Shown: positions 2,442 to 12,943 of the stretch, piece after piece | Numbering within the stretch: position 1 is the first letter of the stretch | Layout: the number at the start of each line of letters is the position of its first letter | DNA from: a bacterium | Lineage (GTDB): Bacteria; Cyanobacteriota; Vampirovibrionia; Gastranaerophilales; Gastranaerophilaceae | NCBI GenBank assembly: GCA_017629215.1 | Contig: JAGBXP010000046.1 | Span: 199-64,198, forward strand | DNA length: 64,000 nt | Reading direction: 5' to 3' | Translations under genes and position numbers: made by a program | The notes under the pieces: model-generated | Databases searched by the model: none | The model's input: the letters and a program-made list of their open reading frames with translations, nothing else | Told to the model about the DNA's origin: nothing

Positions 2442-2567
2442 CTTTATTACCTCCTTTGGTCTTATATTATCATTTTTAAAGTTTTTACAAAAATTTCAAT
2501 AGTCTACTAAGGCTATAAATATCTAATTCTTATTTTTTGTGATACTCTAAAGAAAAAGGAGTTGCGT

Positions 2568-3497
2568 ATGGTGGTGTTAGGCAAATTAAAAAAAGTTGAT
2601 TTACGTGAAGCTTGGAAACATGAAGCATTGGATTTTACAAATTGGCTTGCAAAAGAAGAAAATTTATCTTTATTGGGTGAAGAAATTGGTCTAGAAATAG
2701 ATTTGATAGAAAAAGAAGCCAATGTAGGTTCGTATCGGGTAGATATTCTTGCGGAAGAATGTGGCACAGACCGAAAAATTGTTATTGAGAATCAGCTTGA
2801 ATATACCAATCATGGACATTTAGGGCAACTTATAACTTATGCATCTGGATATGACGCTGAAATTATTATTTGGATAGTTAAGGAAGTTCGTAGCGAACAC
2901 AAGCAAGCAATTGACTGGTTAAATGAACATACGGATGACAATATACATTTCTTTGCTATAAAAATGGAATTATGGCAAATTGGAGATTCTGAACTAGCAC
3001 CAAAATTTCAAATAATTTGTAAGCCAAATCAATGGGCAAAAATTTTAAAGAAAAATCCTTCAGAAAAAACTAATACTCAACTACAAAGGCTTGAATTTTG
3101 GACTGCGTTAAACGAATATTTGGAAAATAAAAAATCTAATGTCTCTCCACAAAAACCATCGTCAGATCATTGGAATAATGTTTCAATAGGTACGTCCAAA
3201 GCTCATATTTCACTTAGTCTTTTGTCAAAAGATAAAAAAATAGCTTGTGAATTACATATACCTGACAATAAAGATTTTTATCATTATCTTGAGGAAAATA
3301 AAACAGAAATAGAATCTCTTTTTGGTGAAAAACTCATTTGGAAAGAATTAAAAGATAAAAAAGCAAGTAGAATTATTATTGAAAGAGATAACTTTAATTT
3401 GTTTAATAATGAAAATTGGGAAACAGATTTTGATTGGTTTGAAGAAAAAGTTTTAAAATTCAAAAAAGCTATTTGTCCTTTTATAAAGTTAGGTTAG
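2568..3497 (+). CDS. PD-(D/E)xK nuclease-fold protein with DUF4268-like C-terminal domain
   Basis: 'LGKLKKVDLREAWKHEALDFTNWL...YRVDILAEECGTDRKIVIENQLEYTNHGHLGQLITYA...AIDWLN' is the typical N-terminal pattern of this family. SD AAAGGAG lies 5 nt before ATG 2568; the track start 2562 is a TTG. Confidence 0.7.
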   Translation: MVVLGKLKKVDLREAWKHEALDFTNWLAKEENLSLLGEEIGLEIDLIEKEANVGSYRVDILAEECGTDRKIVIENQLEYTNHGHLGQLITYASGYDAEIIIWIVKEVRSEHKQAIDWLNEHTDDNIHFFAIKMELWQIGDSELAPKFQIICKPNQWAKILKKNPSEKTNTQLQRLEFWTALNEYLENKKSNVSPQKPSSDHWNNVSIGTSKAHISLSLLSKDKKIACELHIPDNKDFYHYLEENKTEIESLFGEKLIWKELKDKKASRIIIERDNFNLFNNENWETDFDWFEEKVLKFKKAICPFIKLG

Positions 3498-4339: not shown

Positions 4340-6028
4340 TTAATTTAAACTATTACAAAGACTTGCAAGCTCTTCATCAGCTTTTTTAATATAGTCATTC
4401 AATCGCTTAAAATGATTATTTATTTGTTGCTTTATTACCGAAGTATTAAATACTGTGTCAAAGGTCCTATAAGCGTATGTTATAAAATTACGTTTACCAA
4501 GATGTGTATACTGCTCATATAGATGATGGCGGTATAGTTTTTTTTGTTTTTCTTGTATCTGTATTTTTTGTTTATGCATATTTTTTAGTTTTTGTTTAGC
4601 ATTCAGTTTCATCGCAGACACAGCACGTCTAGATTTTCTTAAATATCTAGCCAAGCTACCTTCTCTAATCCTTACTTTTTCTCCGTCGAAATAAAAACCT
4701 AAATATTGAAGAGGTTGCTGTTTAATTTTAGTAGCATCGGTAAAATCATAACACTGACTTTTTGAATAATTATCCCATTTTTCAATTGGATGAATTTCTA
4801 GATTCTCTCCCCTTTCATAAATATACTCTTTAATCTTATCTATAATTTTTTCTTTAATATCTTCATCATGCGGACAAATAAACATTATGTCATCACAATA
4901 ACGCCTATACAAACCGCCAACATCTTCTGCAAGTCTTTTCATTGCTGAATCAAAAGGTATCATATAAATATTAGATAGGAGCGCTGACATTGCCGAACCT
5001 TGTGGAATTCCATATGGCTTAGGCGCATAAAAACCTTCGTTTCTATGAAATTTTTTATGCTCAGTATCTTTATAAAATTTTTTATACCAATCCTTAAAGC
5101 TTCTAAAGTTTTCTGCATTTTTAAATAAAATTTTAGGAATCTTTTTGTATATTTTTTTGTTACATTTTACACAATTAACTTGCAAGCAGGGTTTCTTTTT
5201 ATCTTTATTTACATAGTAACAAACTTCCTTCATATCTATGTAACAGTACTTGGTTAATGATTTATATATATTTAGATGATCATCTGGTAATTTATCGGCT
5301 TCAAGTACTTTTGCCCATTCTGCATAGAGATTTTTGTGATCTATATAGTCATAAAAGCTGTGAATATCAAAAGCTAGTGCATAACAATTATTCCCACTTT
5401 TTTTTATTTCTTCAAAAACATCTCTTGCCATAGTACAGTTATTTGGACTAATTTCTTTATCATTTATTTTTACAGGCGGAAGTTTTCTATATGCTAAAAT
5501 AACATCACCTAAATCTAATTCTTGTATTCTTTTTTCATATTTTTCGCTCAATAGACTTGCATAGTGAGCATAAATATATCCATCAATATGAGAAGCATAT
5601 CTAATCGGACGTTTTTTGATAATACCTTTCTTCTTTAAATTATCTAACGCTTCTATACACTTATCTTTTTCTATTCCGGATAATTCAAGCTGTTTTCTCT
5701 TATAATATTTAATTTTATTGATTAAATTTGATCGTCTTTCTTTTATATCAAAAGCTATAAAGGGATAAAATGCATGCTTTGCAATTTTTTCCGGAGAATT
5801 TAAAAACGAATGTAGCGAATCAATTTGATGCTTAATTTTCTTTTGCGATGCAGGTGTTATTACATATTTTGTTTTAGTACTTGATTTATCTTTTGTGATA
5901 TATCTACCGAAAGAGAAAGGTCTATCAAAGTGAGCAAAACTTTTTAGATTGAAGGTTGGGATTTTTTCAGAAACCTGCTGGGTTAAATTACTTTTCAGTT
6001 TGTTGTAATTATTTTGCTTTTTAGACAT
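4340..6028 (-). CDS. Reverse transcriptase, UG/Abi (defence-associated) class-like, 562 aa
   Basis: RT motifs 'RPIRYASHIDGYIYAHYASLL', 'LAFDIHSFYDYIDH', 'GIPQGSAMSALLSNIYM', 'YCDD' (nt 4889-4900) and 'LQYLGFYFDG'. No maturase/En domain and no retron-like features. Confidence 0.85.
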   Translation of the reverse strand: MSKKQNNYNKLKSNLTQQVSEKIPTFNLKSFAHFDRPFSFGRYITKDKSSTKTKYVITPASQKKIKHQIDSLHSFLNSPEKIAKHAFYPFIAFDIKERRSNLINKIKYYKRKQLELSGIEKDKCIEALDNLKKKGIIKKRPIRYASHIDGYIYAHYASLLSEKYEKRIQELDLGDVILAYRKLPPVKINDKEISPNNCTMARDVFEEIKKSGNNCYALAFDIHSFYDYIDHKNLYAEWAKVLEADKLPDDHLNIYKSLTKYCYIDMKEVCYYVNKDKKKPCLQVNCVKCNKKIYKKIPKILFKNAENFRSFKDWYKKFYKDTEHKKFHRNEGFYAPKPYGIPQGSAMSALLSNIYMIPFDSAMKRLAEDVGGLYRRYCDDIMFICPHDEDIKEKIIDKIKEYIYERGENLEIHPIEKWDNYSKSQCYDFTDATKIKQQPLQYLGFYFDGEKVRIREGSLARYLRKSRRAVSAMKLNAKQKLKNMHKQKIQIQEKQKKLYRHHLYEQYTHLGKRNFITYAYRTFDTVFNTSVIKQQINNHFKRLNDYIKKADEELASLCNSLN

Positions 6029-6436
6029 ATATTTCCTTTTTTAGCACGGAAGACACTCGGATTCGTTCGTCCATAAGAGTGTCTTCCAAAACTTAGCCTT
6101 CTTTATCAGAAGAACATTTTCTTTGACAATTCAAGTCGTCTTTCAACCTTCTTGTCTTGTTAAAAGTTTCATATCCCTGTCAACAACGAGTTTATACTCT
6201 ATGTTATAATGGTAAATATAACCTTAGAAAGGAGATACTAATGATATTCTTAACCATTCTGATTGAAGGTTTAAGGTTCTACCTTAGTAAACACCTTCTT
6301 GTGAAGATAATAACGCGAAGCGTTATTATACTTTACAAAGTTTATTCACCTCCCACCTGCCAAATTAGAATTTCTAACCAACAAATGGCATTATAATGTT
6401 ATCATAAAAATAATATTTTTATAAAAAACTTAATTA
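6029..6436 (-). ncRNA. Candidate structured non-coding leader / RT-associated ncRNA
   Basis: 408-nt gap between hsdS stop and RT start. Perfect 11-bp hairpin 6048-6058/6077-6087 ends 20 nt before the RT SD. Perfect 10-bp hairpin 6307-6316/6320-6329. Three CCTTCTT(G/T)T motifs at 6097, 6147 and 6294. Confidence 0.35.
6241..6396 (+). CDS. Candidate 51-aa hydrophobic peptide, antisense to the RT leader
   Basis: Extended -10 TGtTATAAT (6202-6210), SD AAAGGAG (6228-6234) and ATG 6241. 'MIFLTILIEGLRFYLSKHLLVKIITRSVIILYKVY...'. The frame is open 6127-6396. Confidence 0.25.
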   Translation: MIFLTILIEGLRFYLSKHLLVKIITRSVIILYKVYSPPTCQIRISNQQMAL

Positions 6437-8311
6437 TTATTTAATATTTGAATCCGGAATTAAATTTTTTCTTCTCATAAAAAGAATTCTATCCTGCAAA
6501 TCACTGTCATAAAATCTTGCTTTTTGTTTACTCCACGCTTTAAAATCTGCAATTAAATCGGTATCAGTACAGCTTAAGTTATTACTCAATCTATTTAACC
6601 AAACTGCATACAATGTTGCCACAGATTCACAAAAATCTGAATTTTTGCCTCTAAATAGTTCTAACAGATTATTTATTCCTGTTACTTCTGCACTAAATAC
6701 TTTGTTAAATATTTCAGAAATTTCGTTACTTTTTTCAAGTGGAGTATATTTTGTAACTTCAATATTGTTTTTTTGTTCTTTTCGAATGCTAAACCATTTT
6801 TTATTTTTCAAAATATCTTCTACTTCATATCTTGCTTGTGCATCATGAGGTCCTGCAGCTTCTTGTTTATATTTACCACCAAGATTTATTTTTAAATGTG
6901 TTTCGCAAAAATATATAATTTTTTCTAGCTTTATTGCACCAAAATATTGTTCTTCATACAACTGTGAAATGATTTTTGCACTTAAAATTGCCCTTTTTTC
7001 TTTTAAATCAATAATATTGCTACTCTTATTTAGATATACAGTTAAAAACATTTCCTCAATAGATTTTAATAAACTTAAAGAGTTTTCTTTAACTGAATCA
7101 TTTTTCTTTTTTAAATTTTCTATAAAATCTAATAATTTATTAATTTTATTAACTATACGAAGTTGCTCGGTAAGAGGGGGTAGTGGAACCATAAGTTTAC
7201 TTAAGGATTGTCCATTTACATTTGGCTGTCCTGTTCCCATTGAATATTCTTTTAGTTGTTTCCAATATAAAGGTGATTCCATAAATATTTTTATATATTT
7301 TTCATTGATATTATTGAGAGGAATTGCTCTTATTAAGTATGATGCAAACACAGCGGTTTCTTTTAAATTATCAACAACATATGTTTTACCCATCGTACCC
7401 CCTGTCCGTGCAATTAAAATGTCTCGATTTTGTAACATATATTTTTTTATATTATCATCAGATATTGAACAAAACGGAACGTTATTCCATAATACTTTGT
7501 CATCTTGTATATCTGTAATTCTTAATAATTTCACATTCCCGCTATTTTCTGCTGATGCAGTATACCCATAATGAATTTGTGTGGTTATTGAGCCTAATTT
7601 TGTCCACTCCCAACCTTTTGGCAACTCATACGGAAATTCATCTTCTGTAATCGGTGGCATTGGTCTTTCGTTTTTGAGTTTGCCATCTTTTACTAGTTGT
7701 TCTTTTTCTGCTTTTATTCTTTTTAGGAGTTCTGAGGCAGGTTTATCCGATTGTTTTTGAGGAATTAATATACCCCTAACGGCATCTAACAAAAGAGATT
7801 CTTTTAAACTCTGAATTAACAATTCTTGTTCAAGACATTTTTTATTAATCAAATTATTTTTATATTTTGCCTTTTTAATTTTTTCTACAATTTGCTCTTG
7901 AATATTTATGTTTGGAATTTCTATAATAATAGTTTTTATACTATTAATTGTAAGAGAAACATTTGCTGCACCTTTCATTAGCGGAACGATTTTTGAATCT
8001 TTATAAAAAGATAAATAATAATATAGGAATTCTGCGTTTAACTGCTTTTCATCGTTTGGAATAACAGCTGCAAGTATATTACCAAGTGCAAATTTACCTT
8101 CTTGATAGTGTATTCTTTTTAAACTTGCATGTCCATGTCCAGTCGAAGAGACTAGCGGAATACATACTGCTTTTGTATCAAATTGGTACTCATTGCTGGA
8201 TAGCCTTTCTTCTGCTGTTACAACTAATGGATAATCTCCGGCAATAGCTTTTTTTATTCCGGTAGAACCTTTTATTATTGTGCATACTTCACCAAGTGTA
8301 AATTGTTCCAT
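6437..8311 (-). CDS. hsdS: Type I R-M specificity subunit HsdS with ~200-aa C-terminal extension
   Basis: Two target-recognition domains with conserved spacers ('...LPPLTEQLRIVNKINKLLDFIENL'). 624 aa, longer than a typical ~400-450 aa HsdS. The tail (nt ~6440-7010) carries 'AIKLEKIIYFCETHL...AAGPHD'. Confidence 0.85.
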   Translation of the reverse strand: MEQFTLGEVCTIIKGSTGIKKAIAGDYPLVVTAEERLSSNEYQFDTKAVCIPLVSSTGHGHASLKRIHYQEGKFALGNILAAVIPNDEKQLNAEFLYYYLSFYKDSKIVPLMKGAANVSLTINSIKTIIIEIPNINIQEQIVEKIKKAKYKNNLINKKCLEQELLIQSLKESLLLDAVRGILIPQKQSDKPASELLKRIKAEKEQLVKDGKLKNERPMPPITEDEFPYELPKGWEWTKLGSITTQIHYGYTASAENSGNVKLLRITDIQDDKVLWNNVPFCSISDDNIKKYMLQNRDILIARTGGTMGKTYVVDNLKETAVFASYLIRAIPLNNINEKYIKIFMESPLYWKQLKEYSMGTGQPNVNGQSLSKLMVPLPPLTEQLRIVNKINKLLDFIENLKKKNDSVKENSLSLLKSIEEMFLTVYLNKSSNIIDLKEKRAILSAKIISQLYEEQYFGAIKLEKIIYFCETHLKINLGGKYKQEAAGPHDAQARYEVEDILKNKKWFSIRKEQKNNIEVTKYTPLEKSNEISEIFNKVFSAEVTGINNLLELFRGKNSDFCESVATLYAVWLNRLSNNLSCTDTDLIADFKAWSKQKARFYDSDLQDRILFMRRKNLIPDSNIK

Positions 8312-8312
8312 T

Positions 8313-9740
8313 TTAAACCCTTAATTCTGCTTCTATTGAATCTAAAAGAGTATTAATTTCTTCATAATTATTCCTAAGTTTTTTTATTAATTCTTGTGGA
8401 GATTCTAATATTTTTTCTTCTGAATTATTTGGATTTTTTATATCAAGATTGTAATTATTATTGACAATTTCTTCTACTGATACTTTCCAAGCTACTTCAT
8501 TTTCTACTTTATTTCCCCACCACTTACGTATAGGATCAAATTCTTCATTCCGTATAGGATTTGTTTTTGAATAACTTTTTAGTCCTTCGGGTAATTTATG
8601 TTCATAGAACCAAATATGTTGTGTTGGTTCTCCTTTTTTAAAGAATAATAAATTTGTACCGACTGTAGCATATGGTTTAAAAACGGAATTAGGTAATCTG
8701 ACGATAACTTCAAGATTACAAGTTTTAAGTAATTCCTCTTTTATTCTTGTTTTTACACCTTCTCCAAAAAGTGAACCGTCAGGCAAAACGACACCTGCTC
8801 TGCCTTGATGTTTTAGCATTTTCATTATATAGACCAAGAATAAATCTGCTGTTTCTCGAGTTCTAAAACTTGCAGGAAAATTATTTTCAATTCCTTCTTC
8901 CTCGATACCGCCAAACGGTGGGTTTGTAACGATACAATCAACCCTATCAGCTGGCGAGATATTATTTATCGGTTTAGATAAAGTGTTATCTCGTCTGATA
9001 TTTATTGGTGTATCAATTCCGTGCAATATCATATTAGTTGTGCAAAGTTGGTGCGGAAGTGGCTTCTTTTCAATCCCACAAATGTTTGTGTTTAAGGTTT
9101 CAGCTTCCGCAGATGTTGAAATTTGTTTTTTCAAATGTTCGATTGTGCAAGCCAAAAATCCACCTGTACCACACGCAGGGTCAAGAACTTTTTCGTTTAT
9201 TTTAGGATTAACCATATCAACGATAAATTGAGTTACTGCACGAGGTGTGTAATATTCCCCTGCATTACCTGCTGATTGCAAGCTTTGTAATAGCTGCTCA
9301 TAAATATCATTAAATAGGTGTCTATCTTCGCTTGAATTAAAGTCGATTTCGTTAATTTTATTAATAACTTGGCGAAGCAAAGTACCTGATTTCATGTAAT
9401 TATAAGTATCTTGAAAAATATTTTTAATAATAAAAGCACGTTTATCAGCATCATTTTCAAGGTTTTGCAAATATGGAAATAAATCGTTGTTGATAAAATC
9501 AATCAACTCATCCCCTGTCATACCTTCATCATCTTTTGCCCAAGTTTGCCAGCGATATTTTTCAGCAATTGGTGATTTGTAGTTATCATCAATAATTTCT
9601 GCTTCAACTTCTTTATCTGCAAAAATCTTTAAAAATAACATCCAGACGATTTGAGAAAGTCTTTGTGCATCACCATCAACCCCTGTATCTTTTCTCATTA
9701 TGTCCTGTATCGCTTTTATAACACTTGATATATTTGGCAT
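8313..9740 (-). CDS. hsdM: Type I R-M N6-adenine DNA methyltransferase HsdM
   Basis: 'LDPACGTGGFL' (SAM motif I) and 'TNPPFGG' (motif IV). HsdM N-terminal domain. Stop lies 1 nt from the hsdS start. Confidence 0.93.
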   Translation of the reverse strand: MPNISSVIKAIQDIMRKDTGVDGDAQRLSQIVWMLFLKIFADKEVEAEIIDDNYKSPIAEKYRWQTWAKDDEGMTGDELIDFINNDLFPYLQNLENDADKRAFIIKNIFQDTYNYMKSGTLLRQVINKINEIDFNSSEDRHLFNDIYEQLLQSLQSAGNAGEYYTPRAVTQFIVDMVNPKINEKVLDPACGTGGFLACTIEHLKKQISTSAEAETLNTNICGIEKKPLPHQLCTTNMILHGIDTPINIRRDNTLSKPINNISPADRVDCIVTNPPFGGIEEEGIENNFPASFRTRETADLFLVYIMKMLKHQGRAGVVLPDGSLFGEGVKTRIKEELLKTCNLEVIVRLPNSVFKPYATVGTNLLFFKKGEPTQHIWFYEHKLPEGLKSYSKTNPIRNEEFDPIRKWWGNKVENEVAWKVSVEEIVNNNYNLDIKNPNNSEEKILESPQELIKKLRNNYEEINTLLDSIEAELRV

Positions 9741-9753
9741 TTATATTCTCCAA

Positions 9754-10359
9754 TTATTTTAATAGTTTTTTATTTAATTCTTTAAAAGTTTTTATCAGTT
9801 TAGTTAATGCTTCTCTATTTGTTATAGCTATAGACTTTAACTCTTTAACATTTTCAGATAAAACAGGGTCTAAACCACCATACATTATATTAGCTTGCGT
9901 ATTTATTTCTGCAACAAACTCTTTTTTAACATTGTTATAATCATAAATTGATATTCTGTATACCTGCATTTTGGCACAAATATCATTCAAAATTTGTTCA
10001 TGTTCCTCATGATCAATCATCCAATTTTTCAAAAGCAGAACACAACTACCAAATTCTTCAGCCATTTCATTATCAATCAGCTTAATTTCATTATTTAAAA
10101 ATGCTCTATCTGTTAAATCTTTTTCTGGTATATTTTTAGATTGTTTTGAATAAACTATTGATTCTAATTCATAAAGTTGAAGTTCTTGAATGTATTTGTT
10201 TAGGCCTTCTAATAAATTAATTAATTTTTGTCTTTTTTGTTGGTTTTTCCAAGAGTCTAGAGCCTTTCCTGCAAAAAACGCCATAAATCCTGTAGCAATC
10301 ATCATAACAAAAGTTGATAATGCAGTTAGTCCGTTAAAAAACAATGTCCAGCCTTCCAT
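9754..10359 (-). CDS. Membrane-anchored hypothetical protein (201 aa) embedded in the Type I R-M operon
   Basis: N-terminal TM helix 'WTLFFNGLTALSTFVMMIATGFMAFFAG' followed by a helical soluble part. Start overlaps the hsdR stop (TAATG). Stop lies 13 nt before hsdM. Confidence 0.65.
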   Translation of the reverse strand: MEGWTLFFNGLTALSTFVMMIATGFMAFFAGKALDSWKNQQKRQKLINLLEGLNKYIQELQLYELESIVYSKQSKNIPEKDLTDRAFLNNEIKLIDNEMAEEFGSCVLLLKNWMIDHEEHEQILNDICAKMQVYRISIYDYNNVKKEFVAEINTQANIMYGGLDPVLSENVKELKSIAITNREALTKLIKTFKELNKKLLK

Positions 10360-12749
10360 TATGCCACCTCGTCATTAAACAATTCTTTTTCAAGTTCTCG
10401 GATTGCTTCTTCGTATCTATCCTTACCACCAAATTCTTTGATAATTTCTACTGGTGTACCAAATTTATCAAACGGTTGAAAACTTAAAATACTACGATTT
10501 TCGATTTCCATAATACCTTCATCAGCAAATTTATCAATCAAGGCATTTAAAATAGCTCTGGCTTTTTCAGAATACTTACCAAAATAATTTCTTTTCTTAA
10601 CCTTTTCAGCTCTTTCTTTTCTTGAAAGCGGTGGCATATCAAAAGTTACGTGACAAATCAAATCAAAAATACTTAAATCCTTGCCTGTTTTCTGTTTGAC
10701 TTCTTCTCTCAACTCTTCAAACAAAATACCTTGTTCTTCCAGTTCTTCAATAATTACAGATTTTTTGTCAGCTTCTGACCATTTTTTGATAAAATCATTC
10801 AATGTCGCAAACTGCTCTTTTAAATTCTTTTTCGTATAATCAACAAGGCTTTCGGTAATTAATTTTCCATCTTTACCATAATACTGAACACGTTCACCAA
10901 CTTGGACAACTTCAACTCCATTTACATAAAATTTTCTTGTCGGAGTTTCAATATCGGTTAAATCAATATCTGGTGGGATATCTACAACTGTTTCTTCTTT
11001 TGAAATTTCATCAATTATATCGATAATTTCTTCTTTTGTTTGTTCATCAGCTGGCATTTCTTCAGTTTCTTTTACTTCTTTTATTTGAACAGGTTCTCCA
11101 TCAAATTCCTTGTCTTCAAATAAACGAGTCACGCCTCTAAAATCCATAATCGTGAAATAATACTTGCCAAAATCTGGTCTCAAACGAGTTCCACGACCAA
11201 TGATTTGTTTAAATTCTGTCATTGAATTAATATTGCTATCAAGAACAATTAGCTTACATGTTTTAGCATCAACGCCAGTTGTCATTAGTTTTGATGTTGT
11301 TGCAATTACAGGATAAGTTGATTCAGGATCTATAAAATTATCTAATTCCATTTTGCCTTCATTATCATCACCAGTAATTTTCATTACATATTTTGAGTTT
11401 TGAGCAACTAAATCAGCATTTTCATTTACCAATGCTTGGCGCATTCTATTTGCATGATCAATATCTACGCAGAAAACAATAGTCTTATCCAATCTATTAT
11501 TTTTCTTTAAATATTCTGTAATTCTCTTTGCAACAAGTTCAGTTCTCTCATCTACAACTATTTTCTTATCAAAATCTTTTGTATTGAATTCTTCATCAGG
11601 GACTTCGTTTCCATATTTATCAATTGTACCTTGAGGTAATTTTAAGCCATCTAAATCAATATTGATTAGCGGTCTAATAACTTTATATGGAGCAAGAAAA
11701 CCATCTTCAATACCTTGTTTTAGTGAATAAGTATAAATTGGTTCACCAAAGTATTCAATATTGGAAACATCTTTTGTCTCTTTTGGTGTTGCAGTTAAAC
11801 CCAAATGAGAAGCTGAACTAAAATAATCAAGGACTTCACGCCAAGCAGAATCTTCTTTAGCACTACCTCTATGACACTCATCAATTACAACTAAATCGAA
11901 AAAATCTGGTGAAAATTGTTTATATGCGTCTTTATCTTCATCATTACCAGTAAGACCTTGATATAAAGCAAGATAGATTTCGTATGATTTATCAATTTGT
12001 CTTTTGGTAATTTTAGTCATTTTATCACCAAAAGGTGCAAAATCTTGAGCTTTTGTTTGATCGATTAAAATATTTCTATCAGCCAAAAATAAAATTCTTT
12101 TCTTTTTACGTGCTTTCCATAATCTCCAAATGATTTGAAAAGCTGTATAAGTTTTACCAGTACCTGTTGCCATTACCAACAAGGTTCTATCTTGACCTTT
12201 TGCAATAGCTTCAACCGCTCTATTTATTGCAATTCTTTGATAATATCTTGGCTCTTTTCCACTTGGATCAATATGATAATTTTGTGTATAAACTGATTCA
12301 ACTTCAACATCTTCGATTTGTTTGTATTTTTTGTATTTATTCCACAACTCTTGTGGACTTGGAAATTTATTTACAGGTAGTTCAATTTCTTTTTTACCAA
12401 GCTCTACAGTTCTATCATGTAATAAAAAAGCATCGCCATTTGAAGAAAAAACAAACGGAATATCCAACGTTTCGGCATATTCAATACCTTGTTGAATACC
12501 TGCTCCAACCGAATGTTTATTGTCTTTAGCCTCAATAATAGCGATAGGAATATTGTTCTTGTAATACAAAATGTAATCAGCGCGCTTTTGTTTTCCTCTT
12601 GAAACAAGCTTGCCTCTTACAATAACTTTACCAGCAGTAAAAGAAACCTCTTCTCTTATTTGTGCATTTCTATCCCAACCAGCTTCTATAATAGCAGGAG
12701 TTATAAATTTTGTACAAATATCTCTTTCTGATAAAGATTTTTTATCCAT
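10359..12749 (-). CDS. hsdR: Type I restriction enzyme R subunit HsdR
   Basis: N-terminal PD-(D/E)xK ('ADYILYY...IAIIEAKD'), SF2 helicase motifs 'MATGTGKTYTAF' and 'VIDECHRGS'. ATG 12749 has a GAGG SD; the tracked start 12773 is a TTG. Confidence 0.93.
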   Translation of the reverse strand: MDKKSLSERDICTKFITPAIIEAGWDRNAQIREEVSFTAGKVIVRGKLVSRGKQKRADYILYYKNNIPIAIIEAKDNKHSVGAGIQQGIEYAETLDIPFVFSSNGDAFLLHDRTVELGKKEIELPVNKFPSPQELWNKYKKYKQIEDVEVESVYTQNYHIDPSGKEPRYYQRIAINRAVEAIAKGQDRTLLVMATGTGKTYTAFQIIWRLWKARKKKRILFLADRNILIDQTKAQDFAPFGDKMTKITKRQIDKSYEIYLALYQGLTGNDEDKDAYKQFSPDFFDLVVIDECHRGSAKEDSAWREVLDYFSSASHLGLTATPKETKDVSNIEYFGEPIYTYSLKQGIEDGFLAPYKVIRPLINIDLDGLKLPQGTIDKYGNEVPDEEFNTKDFDKKIVVDERTELVAKRITEYLKKNNRLDKTIVFCVDIDHANRMRQALVNENADLVAQNSKYVMKITGDDNEGKMELDNFIDPESTYPVIATTSKLMTTGVDAKTCKLIVLDSNINSMTEFKQIIGRGTRLRPDFGKYYFTIMDFRGVTRLFEDKEFDGEPVQIKEVKETEEMPADEQTKEEIIDIIDEISKEETVVDIPPDIDLTDIETPTRKFYVNGVEVVQVGERVQYYGKDGKLITESLVDYTKKNLKEQFATLNDFIKKWSEADKKSVIIEELEEQGILFEELREEVKQKTGKDLSIFDLICHVTFDMPPLSRKERAEKVKKRNYFGKYSEKARAILNALIDKFADEGIMEIENRSILSFQPFDKFGTPVEIIKEFGGKDRYEEAIRELEKELFNDEVA

Positions 12750-12943
12750 GAAGACCTCATACTTCTTGAACAATTATAGCATAAATAATATCTATAGGCT
12801 TTATTGTTTTATTGGGCTGAGACTTTTATCGTATATTCAATATAAATATATTCATATTGTACAAATTCAATTTAACTCAATGCTATAATCATTAATAATA
12901 ATTAATTTTGATAAAATAAAGTTTGGATATTAAAAATTAGAAT

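Follow-up and report, generated by a model that had tools for sequence, protein, structure and literature searches.

A divergent DRT2 leader from a gut Gastranaerophilales bacterium with a predicted template RNA and the predicted split parts of a never-ending neo reading frame

The stretch of DNA analyzed here (the window; 64,000 nt) comes from a bacterium of the Gastranaerophilales and carries on its minus strand a gene for a reverse transcriptase (RT), separated from a long hsdS gene by a 408-nt gap (positions 6029-6436) that is the subject of this report (Table 1). PADLOC assigned the RT to Drt2 (models with E=7.5e-116 and 8.6e-96); the next-best family was RT_UG17 (E=3e-22), and retron RT models matched weakly (E~1e-12). 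The protein also matched RVT_1 in Pfam and the solved DRT2 chains 9c0i/9lje in PDB (E~1e-63 to 4e-63), and it was 36% identical, with gaps mapped, to an annotated Acinetobacter Drt2. The motif RRYCDDIMFI is invariant across the RTs of the clade, and the YCDD active site is intact. Relative to canonical Drt2, the RT is a long form: it is extended by ~65 aa at the N-terminus and has gained a Cys-rich insert at about residues 270-337. As the RT is a DRT2, the 408-nt gap is expected to be a DRT2 noncoding RNA (ncRNA) with a neo proto-gene. We therefore propose, with a probability of about 0.82 on the sequence evidence, that 6029-6436 encodes a DRT2 ncRNA on the minus strand and, on the plus strand, the split parts of the never-ending open reading frame (ORF) neo.

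In KpnDRT2, a 281-nt ncRNA upstream of the RT contains a 120-nt template bounded by two ACA motifs, which the RT copies repeatedly by template jumping (PMC11100668, PMC12039810). The concatemer rebuilds a sigma-70 promoter over each junction, from a -35 that lies close to the 3' end of one unit and a -10 that lies close to the 5' end of the next, and forms the stop-less ORF neo, antisense to the ncRNA, whose product Neo arrests growth (PMC11100668, PMC12039810).

Related loci (L001 and so on; WIN is the window's own locus) were taken from a genome scan (8 loci) and a metagenome scan (80 loci). A protein search delineated a long-form Drt2 subclade of ~70 proteins, which measure about 510-610 aa and show 36-93% identity; ten contigs that encode such proteins were added. 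The leader is conserved in Gastranaerophilales metagenome-assembled genomes (MAGs) and in metagenomes, and it aligns well across loci whose RTs are 48-88% identical. The supplement of Tang et al. has no Gastranaerophilales or Melainabacteria entries.

A first-pass annotation, made from the letters of the window, had listed several features in the gap, and a script reproduced them: an 11-bp perfect stem GGAAGACACTC / GAGTGTCTTCC (6048-6058 / 6077-6087), a 10-bp perfect stem ATAATAACGC-GAA-GCGTTATTAT (6307-6329), the 10-mer ACCTTCTTGT at two places 147 nt apart with a third CCTTCTTT copy at 6097, and a single stop-free frame among the six over 6147-6293, on the plus strand, with flanking stops at 6124 and 6394. 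The same frame contains TGTTATAAT, AAAGGAG and an ATG at 6241 that would start a 51-aa product, all as described. Its open stretch is present but comprises 89 sense codons (6127-6393) followed by a stop at 6394-6396, and not the 90 codons given. To gauge chance, 2000 sequences of 408 nt were generated by a first-order Markov model matched to the composition of the window. A frame that stays open for 90 codons or more, in whichever of the six frames, has P=0.02; for perfect stems, P is 0.009 at 11 bp or longer and 0.027 at 10 bp or longer. Direct repeats of 10 nt or longer have P=0.22, in agreement with the earlier remark that the single 10-mer repeat is insignificant on its own. Taken together, the listed features are well beyond chance. 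Coincidence, one of the readings offered at that time, is disfavoured, and the suggestion of a DRT2/neo-like arrangement proved right in kind, while two of its parts, a junction at the 10-mer pair and a self-contained promoter, were not supported.

To locate the junction, leaders were searched for a -10 and a -35 in reversed order that would come to a spacer of 16-18 nt across a junction with a microhomology of at least 3 nt; the unit length had to be a multiple of 3 and the concatemer stop-free. In the window, exactly one solution was obtained (d=150 with a 7-nt homology, near-consensus -10 and -35, and a spacer of 17 nt). It uses two copies of AGTTTAT that lie 150 nt apart, a spacing also found in L001, L002, L003, L005, L006 and L009. 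When 6345 is joined to 6196, TTTACA stands exactly 17 nt upstream of TGTTATAAT. In the genome, the same TTTACA lies 122 nt downstream of that -10, and the 17-nt spacing arises only across the junction; the promoter is not self-contained, contrary to the earlier claim that the frame has a promoter of its own.

The search returned an analogous solution in L001, L002, L003, L004, L012, L007, L089, L090, L091, L095, L097 and L098; L092, L093 and L094 were also solved, with hexamers picked by eye (TTGCAG, TTGCAT and TATAAG). The unit lengths of these 15 relatives are 129, 141 (three loci), 147 (three), 150 (four), 153, 156, 159 and 171 nt. All eight distinct lengths are divisible by 3, and each concatemer is stop-free in one frame. 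Every unit of the clade contains GGAGG or AAGGAG followed by an in-frame ATG, and the junction spacer is exactly 17 nt in 16 of 16 clade loci (the 15 relatives and WIN). TGnTATAAT is conserved across the clade, and the equivalents of the -35 are TTGACA or TTGCAx. Junction homologies of 4-12 nt occur at the equivalent place in the 15 relatives; relatives have GUUA(A), AUUA or GUUGAA where the present locus has AUAAACU, and a conserved ACA trinucleotide was not found at these junctions.

Controls were run on the leaders of the DRT2 set. A solution was found for 37/79 leaders in the cDNA sense versus 3/79 in the RNA sense, and 20 dinucleotide shuffles gave 0-8/79 solved leaders per set. As a positive control, canonical-length Drt2 loci of the same set showed the published pattern, with a TGT homology and d=114-132. 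More distant long-RT loci (L014, L016, L017 and L096) gave no clean solution, and a relaxed promoter search in L014, L016, L017, L008 and others yielded only noisy, unconvincing ones.

The 10-mer pair provides a different candidate junction. If the RT jumped between the ACAAGAAGGU copies (6302 to 6156), it would generate a 147-nt, 49-codon unit expressed from a self-contained extended -10, and cDNA with a 147-nt period and junctions of the form ...CTTCTTGT / CTTGTTAAA. The repeat is perfect over 10 nt, 147 equals 49 x 3, the concatemer is stop-free, and the repeat starts with ACA, recalling ACA-1/ACA-2 of KpnDRT2. Its core is also kept: CAAGAAG is conserved at two homologous places, one in the template and one in the scaffold ~33-38 nt past the acceptor (L001, L002, L090, L091 and L092), and the L001 spacing of 153 is likewise in-frame. 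However, six lineages space the two copies by 147, 153, 154, 148, 146 and 158 nt, and a further two by 145 and 148 nt; modulo 3 these values are 0, 0, 1, 1, 2, 2, 1 and 1, which is random as to codons and makes the pair an unlikely jump site, contrary to the first-pass annotation. An in-frame, stop-free spacing is kept in homologues by the AGTTTAT-type unit (15 loci) and not by the 10-mers. Moreover, an in-frame TAA overlaps the 3' copy in L003-L006, the frame is closed two codons before the AGTTTAT-type acceptor in L092 and L094, a 147-nt junction yields no -35 at 16-18 nt from any -10, and a repeat of this length in 408 nt is compatible with chance, as given above. We consider this version improbable; the 6345/6196 join fits better as the junction, and the 10-mer junction is probably wrong. 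In a separate attempt to assign a role to the motif, pairing of the scaffold CAAGAAG with the 5' arm of the -35 hairpin, as a basal stem closing the template, was evaluated with RNAduplex and rejected, being no better than shuffles in 14/16 loci.

The first stops met beyond the unit lie 2-42 codons ahead of the acceptor and 5-57 codons past the donor, as chance predicts, and selection for openness therefore appears to be confined to the unit. The idea that openness extends up to the 5' end of the RNA so as to permit a run-off, stop-less cDNA was rejected on the same flank lengths.

These lengths also bear on whether the frame is an ordinary chromosomal antisense gene, in which a 51-aa hydrophobic (toxic or membrane) peptide would be expressed from TGTTATAAT with no reverse transcription. 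The extended -10, ribosome-binding site, ATG and stop do stand in linear order, and gene callers predict such ORFs in homologous leaders. Yet in every relative the frame is open through the promoter, from the ATG 15 codons upstream to the acceptor, which a gene does not need, and the C-terminal tail past the donor varies over 5-57 codons as if by chance. The conserved near-consensus -35 is misplaced for a linear promoter, yet lies 17 nt away across the junction; there is little sign of selection on the peptide sequence, and the ORF matches no Pfam or PADLOC family. This reading, which the first-pass annotation had also listed, is disfavoured and is in our judgement about as improbable as a jump at the 10-mers. 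In public assemblies, the callers annotate antisense ORFs in the leaders of L094 (880-1032, minus in locus orientation, 50 aa), L095 (758-1078, minus in locus orientation, 106 aa) and L097 (832-1011, minus in locus orientation, 59 aa). These would be fragments of the neo frame and not ordinary genes.

The predicted ncRNA is strongly structured. The leader folds with a minimum free energy (MFE) of -103.3 kcal/mol versus -73.3 +/- 4.9 kcal/mol for shuffles (z=-6.1). A 5' handle hairpin of differing sequence occupies the equivalent position in L092, L093, L095, L097 and L098. Within the template, the -35 hairpin has as its apex the second hairpin of the first-pass annotation (6307-6329); the consensus fold reveals compensatory changes at several of its pairs, and all clade loci keep it with different apical sequences. 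The template copy of the 10-mer motif sits just 3' of a hairpin, and in the remainder of the template the -10, ribosome-binding site and ATG are present as their complements. The second hairpin had been offered as a possible hsdS terminator. This is not borne out, as it lies inside the conserved RNA, has no U tract, was negative in the terminator scan and covaries within the longer hairpin.

In the 3' scaffold, the terminal hairpin, which corresponds to the first hairpin of that annotation, shows both-sided changes at 10/11 pairs over 12 loci, so that the structural covariation anticipated for homologous leaders is present. Its cells are paired in 95.5% of cases versus 36-52% with slid partner columns, and 0/500 shuffles reach the observed value, with the caveat that the arms were located by maximising complementarity beside the GUGC anchor. 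The conserved GUGCU (6043-6047) precedes the ribosome-binding site of the RT. Structural equivalents of the small hairpin at 6096-6115 occur with different sequences in relatives; as the close relative L012 (~1440-1470; alignment A3 columns 353-373) is without it, this element may be dispensable. An Rfam search of 5800-6700 at E<=10 found no meaningful family, the best match being rli117 with 18.8 bits versus a gathering score of 87.

A candidate -10 box for the ncRNA-RT transcript was recognized by reading the sequence; in an alternative register, CATTAT, it aligns with TATTAT in relatives. The generic promoter scan omits this box because it has no good -35. The promoter and terminator scan of 5900-6600 detected no terminator between hsdS and the ncRNA, and it returned a single weak promoter-like site, fewer than in shuffles.

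The predicted 50-aa product of one unit, read from the ATG, is MIFLTILIEGLRFYLSKHLLVKIITRSVIILYKVYTLCYNGKYNLRKEIL. Where the peptide is conserved across the clade, its residues fall on nucleic-acid signals: CYN matches TGTTATAAT, and LLV or LLA matches CAAGAAG. Codon-position analysis gave a weak third-position excess. Between L090 and L091, there were 12, 9 and 17 differences by codon position, and 9 synonymous versus 17 non-synonymous codons; some pairs in this test are mis-registered, and it was not used as evidence. Weak selection on the peptide agrees with the low conservation reported for Neo. Three units were modelled with AlphaFold2 (AF2) in single-sequence mode, which produced an all-helical structure with two helices per unit; the best model had a predicted local distance difference test (pLDDT) score of 71 and the other four 45-50. 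The model is suggestive at most of a helical, repetitive Neo.

In another alternative, a DRT2-type scaffold RNA would give a different product in this long-RT subclade, for example a single run-off cDNA or a non-coding repeat, with the open frame as a by-product of RNA-structure constraints. Tang et al. (2024) call Neo annotation 'more challenging' in divergent DRT2 clades and raise alternative mechanisms (PMC11100668), and the RT studied here has extra domains, its leader lacks the ACA motif, and there is little amino-acid selection. Against this stand eight distinct unit lengths that are all multiples of 3, an open frame confined to the unit, a conserved ribosome-binding site and ATG within the unit, and an exact 17-nt junction promoter in 16 loci. 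We regard a different product as improbable too.

Several observations weigh against the proposal of a neo-type leader. The transcript, the cDNA and the junction at this locus are deduced from sequence and not from experiment. In the window alone, units of 147 and 150 nt are inseparable, because any in-frame spacing inside an 89-codon ORF is stop-free. The junction homology differs from the ACA of the KpnDRT2 clade, relaxed hexamers chosen by eye were needed for L092, L093 and L094, and several distant long-RT loci are without a clean solution. The third-position excess is weak and hence speaks little for selection on the peptide, and the AF2 support comes from one sequence, with one of five models at pLDDT 71. 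Finally, the extended -10 could act from the chromosome without concatenation and express the 51-aa linear ORF. On the other side, sequence comparisons show the RT family, the conserved RNA structure and the junction rule.

Table 1. Genes and sequence features at the DRT2 locus of the window
Feature	Position	Strand	Remarks
DRT2 reverse transcriptase gene	4340-6028	minus	562 aa; YCDD active site within RRYCDDIMFI
Predicted DRT2 ncRNA	6040-6385	minus	~345 nt; predicted ends, from just past the -10-like box to the conserved GUGCU
Terminal scaffold hairpin	6048-6087	minus	11-bp stem, 18-nt loop; GUGCU directly after
Small scaffold hairpin GUUCUUCUGAUAAAGAAGGC	6096-6115	minus	MFE fold; third CCTTCTTT (6097) forms one arm
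Scaffold hairpin holding the second 10-mer copy	6125-6156	minus	MFE fold
10-mer, scaffold copy	6146-6155	plus	33 nt 3' (RNA sense) of the acceptor, inside the 6125-6156 hairpin
Acceptor copy of the junction repeat, AGTTTAT (RNA AUAAACU)	6189-6195	plus	3' template boundary in the RNA
Predicted template / neo unit	6196-6345	plus	150 nt, 50 codons: TLCYNGKYNLRKEILMIFLTILIEGLRFYLSKHLLVKIITRSVIILYKVY; concatemer stop-free in one frame
Extended -10 of the predicted neo promoter, TGTTATAAT	6202-6210	plus	neo frame reads C-Y-N
Ribosome-binding site AAAGGAG	6228-6234	plus	6 nt upstream of ATG 6241
Proto-neo, linear genomic ORF	6241-6396	plus	51 aa + stop; 35 unit codons + 16 of read-through into the 5' handle
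10-mer, in-template copy (RNA ACAAGAAGGU)	6293-6302	plus	ACAAG is the base of the 3' arm of the -35 hairpin
-35 hairpin in the template	6298-6339	minus	5' arm UUUGUAAAG... is the complement of the -35; 3' arm ends ...CACAAG
-35 element TTTACA of the predicted neo promoter	6332-6337	plus	downstream of its own -10 in the genome
Donor copy of the junction repeat, AGTTTAT in cDNA (AUAAACU in RNA)	6339-6345	plus	
5' handle hairpin CCAUUUGUUGGUUAG...CUAAUUUGGCAGGUGG	6353-6388	minus	consensus fold; conserved GGG follows, a few nt before the donor repeat
Candidate -10 box TATAAT for the ncRNA-RT transcript	6390-6395	minus	predicted by reading the sequence
hsdS	6437-8311	minus	624 aa, long; last gene of the type I restriction-modification (R-M) operon; ends 41 nt upstream of the ncRNA -10 box
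hsdM	8313-9740	minus	type I R-M operon, same strand upstream (Pfam, PADLOC)
hsdR	10359-12773	minus	type I R-M operon, same strand upstream (Pfam, PADLOC)

A stepwise mechanism can be sketched from KpnDRT2, in which the RNA ends, priming, the jump, triggering by phage and toxicity are all inferred. [quoted passage not shown] The ncRNA and the RT would be co-transcribed from a promoter just past hsdS or by read-through of the R-M operon. The RT may hold the RNA by the 5' handle (6353-6388) and the 3' scaffold (6125-6156, 6096-6115, 6048-6087 and the GUGCU tail), and its copying would cover the region of the ribosome-binding site and ATG, the CAAGAAG motif and the -35 hairpin. The end of the nascent cDNA, ...AGTTTAT, templated by AUAAACU at 6345-6339, would then re-pair with the acceptor AUAAACU at 6195-6189, and a restart of copying would produce head-to-tail 150-nt repeats with junctions ...AAAGTTTAT / ACTCTATG. 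After second-strand synthesis, each junction would carry TTTACA, 17 nt and TGTTATAAT, and each unit AAAGGAG and ATG. The 50-codon stop-free unit would thus be translated into a repetitive, hydrophobic and probably helical Neo protein that arrests the infected cell.

Three further roles could be added to this scheme, although jointly we hold them to be doubtful. CAAGAAG might act as a programmed second landing site; alternatively, it might work as a conformational switch that times the onset of rolling-circle copying. The extended -10 could drive an RT-independent, basal, one-unit proto-Neo together with an antisense transcript acting as a regulator of the ncRNA-RT message. Functional coupling of the system to R-M is the third, for example with the ncRNA supplied through operon read-through.

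The insert of the RT (residues ~262-337) contains the clade-invariant cysteines C262, C270, C281, C286 and C289 (...CYY..K....C....C..CNKK...) and could be a zinc-binding module. In L001, a MAG locus (81% identical), a stop after 132 codons breaks the RT frame (3001-3399), and the leader and the neo unit are intact; the gene may be a pseudogene, or the assembly may be in error.

A type I R-M gene lies directly upstream of the ncRNA-RT module, on the same strand, in most lineages of the subclade. In WIN, L003, L007, L091, L092, L097 and L098 it is an hsdS of unusual length (620-690 aa), whereas L090 has an hsdM-hsdS fusion and L095 has hsdR; the upstream R-M genes of L003 and L007 are at 740-2611 and 419-2491, respectively, and L089, L093 and L094 are exceptions. 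In the window, a 201-aa ORF between hsdM and hsdR (9754-10359, minus) is without a Pfam or PADLOC match. A DUF4268 protein (2562-3497, plus) matches the PADLOC candidate defence family PDC-S11 (E=2e-122), and for this reason we place the RT and the R-M operon within a defence island.

The finding leaves known DRT2 biology unchanged. It indicates that neo-type de novo gene synthesis can be recognized from sequence alone in a divergent DRT2 of uncultured gut Melainabacteria, and it offers a transferable rule that is independent of ACA: a microhomology brings the -35 and the -10 to 17 nt, the unit is a multiple of 3, and openness is confined to the unit. A plausible but probably wrong junction assignment was also corrected. 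Small antisense ORFs that gene finders call in such leaders would be pieces of a proto-neo, and their annotation as ordinary genes should be avoided.

Like KpnDRT2, the locus consists of a lone RT gene with a structured ncRNA before it on the same strand. In both, a short direct repeat bounds the template, the unit is divisible by 3 and its sole stop-free frame is antisense to the ncRNA; the -10 and -35 are out of genomic order and 17 nt apart over the junction, and a ribosome-binding site and ATG lie within the unit. Both RNAs have a 5' handle hairpin and a hairpin-bearing 3' scaffold, and both RTs have YCDD. The scaffold here contains a long, covarying terminal hairpin and a small, recurring one, which may or may not be equivalent to elements of the KpnDRT2 scaffold, with its tower and buttress hairpins and a pseudoknot gripping the RT thumb. 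The two systems differ in the RT (562 aa here versus ~425 aa, with the N-terminal extension and Cys-rich insert), the predicted ncRNA (~345 versus 281 nt), the unit (150 versus 120 nt) and the junction (AUAAACU here, GUUA or AUUA in relatives, versus ACA). Unlike KpnDRT2, the present locus has an extended TGn -10, a -35 set in a long conserved hairpin and extra CAAGAAG motifs in template and scaffold, and it resides at the end of a type I R-M operon in a Gastranaerophilales (Melainabacteria) gut host.

DRT10 (UG17) and DRT9 are reported to be RT-ncRNA systems that make short tandem-repeat or homopolymer DNA (PMC12632851, PMC12483538). They share with this locus a defence RT, an adjacent ncRNA template and repeat addition by repositioning, and differ in being protein-primed and in making short repeats or homopolymers with no ORF, whereas the unit here is 150 nt and coding. 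The RT itself separates the locus from DRT10 (Drt2 E=7.5e-116 versus RT_UG17 E=3e-22). Retrons likewise have a structured ncRNA, msr-msd, upstream of the RT as the cDNA template; unlike retrons, the present locus has no inverted repeats flanking an msr-msd, no branching-G context and no effector gene, and its product is predicted to be concatemeric and coding. The neo mechanism is one already known, predicted here in a divergent long-RT subclade of gut bacteria with a non-ACA junction.

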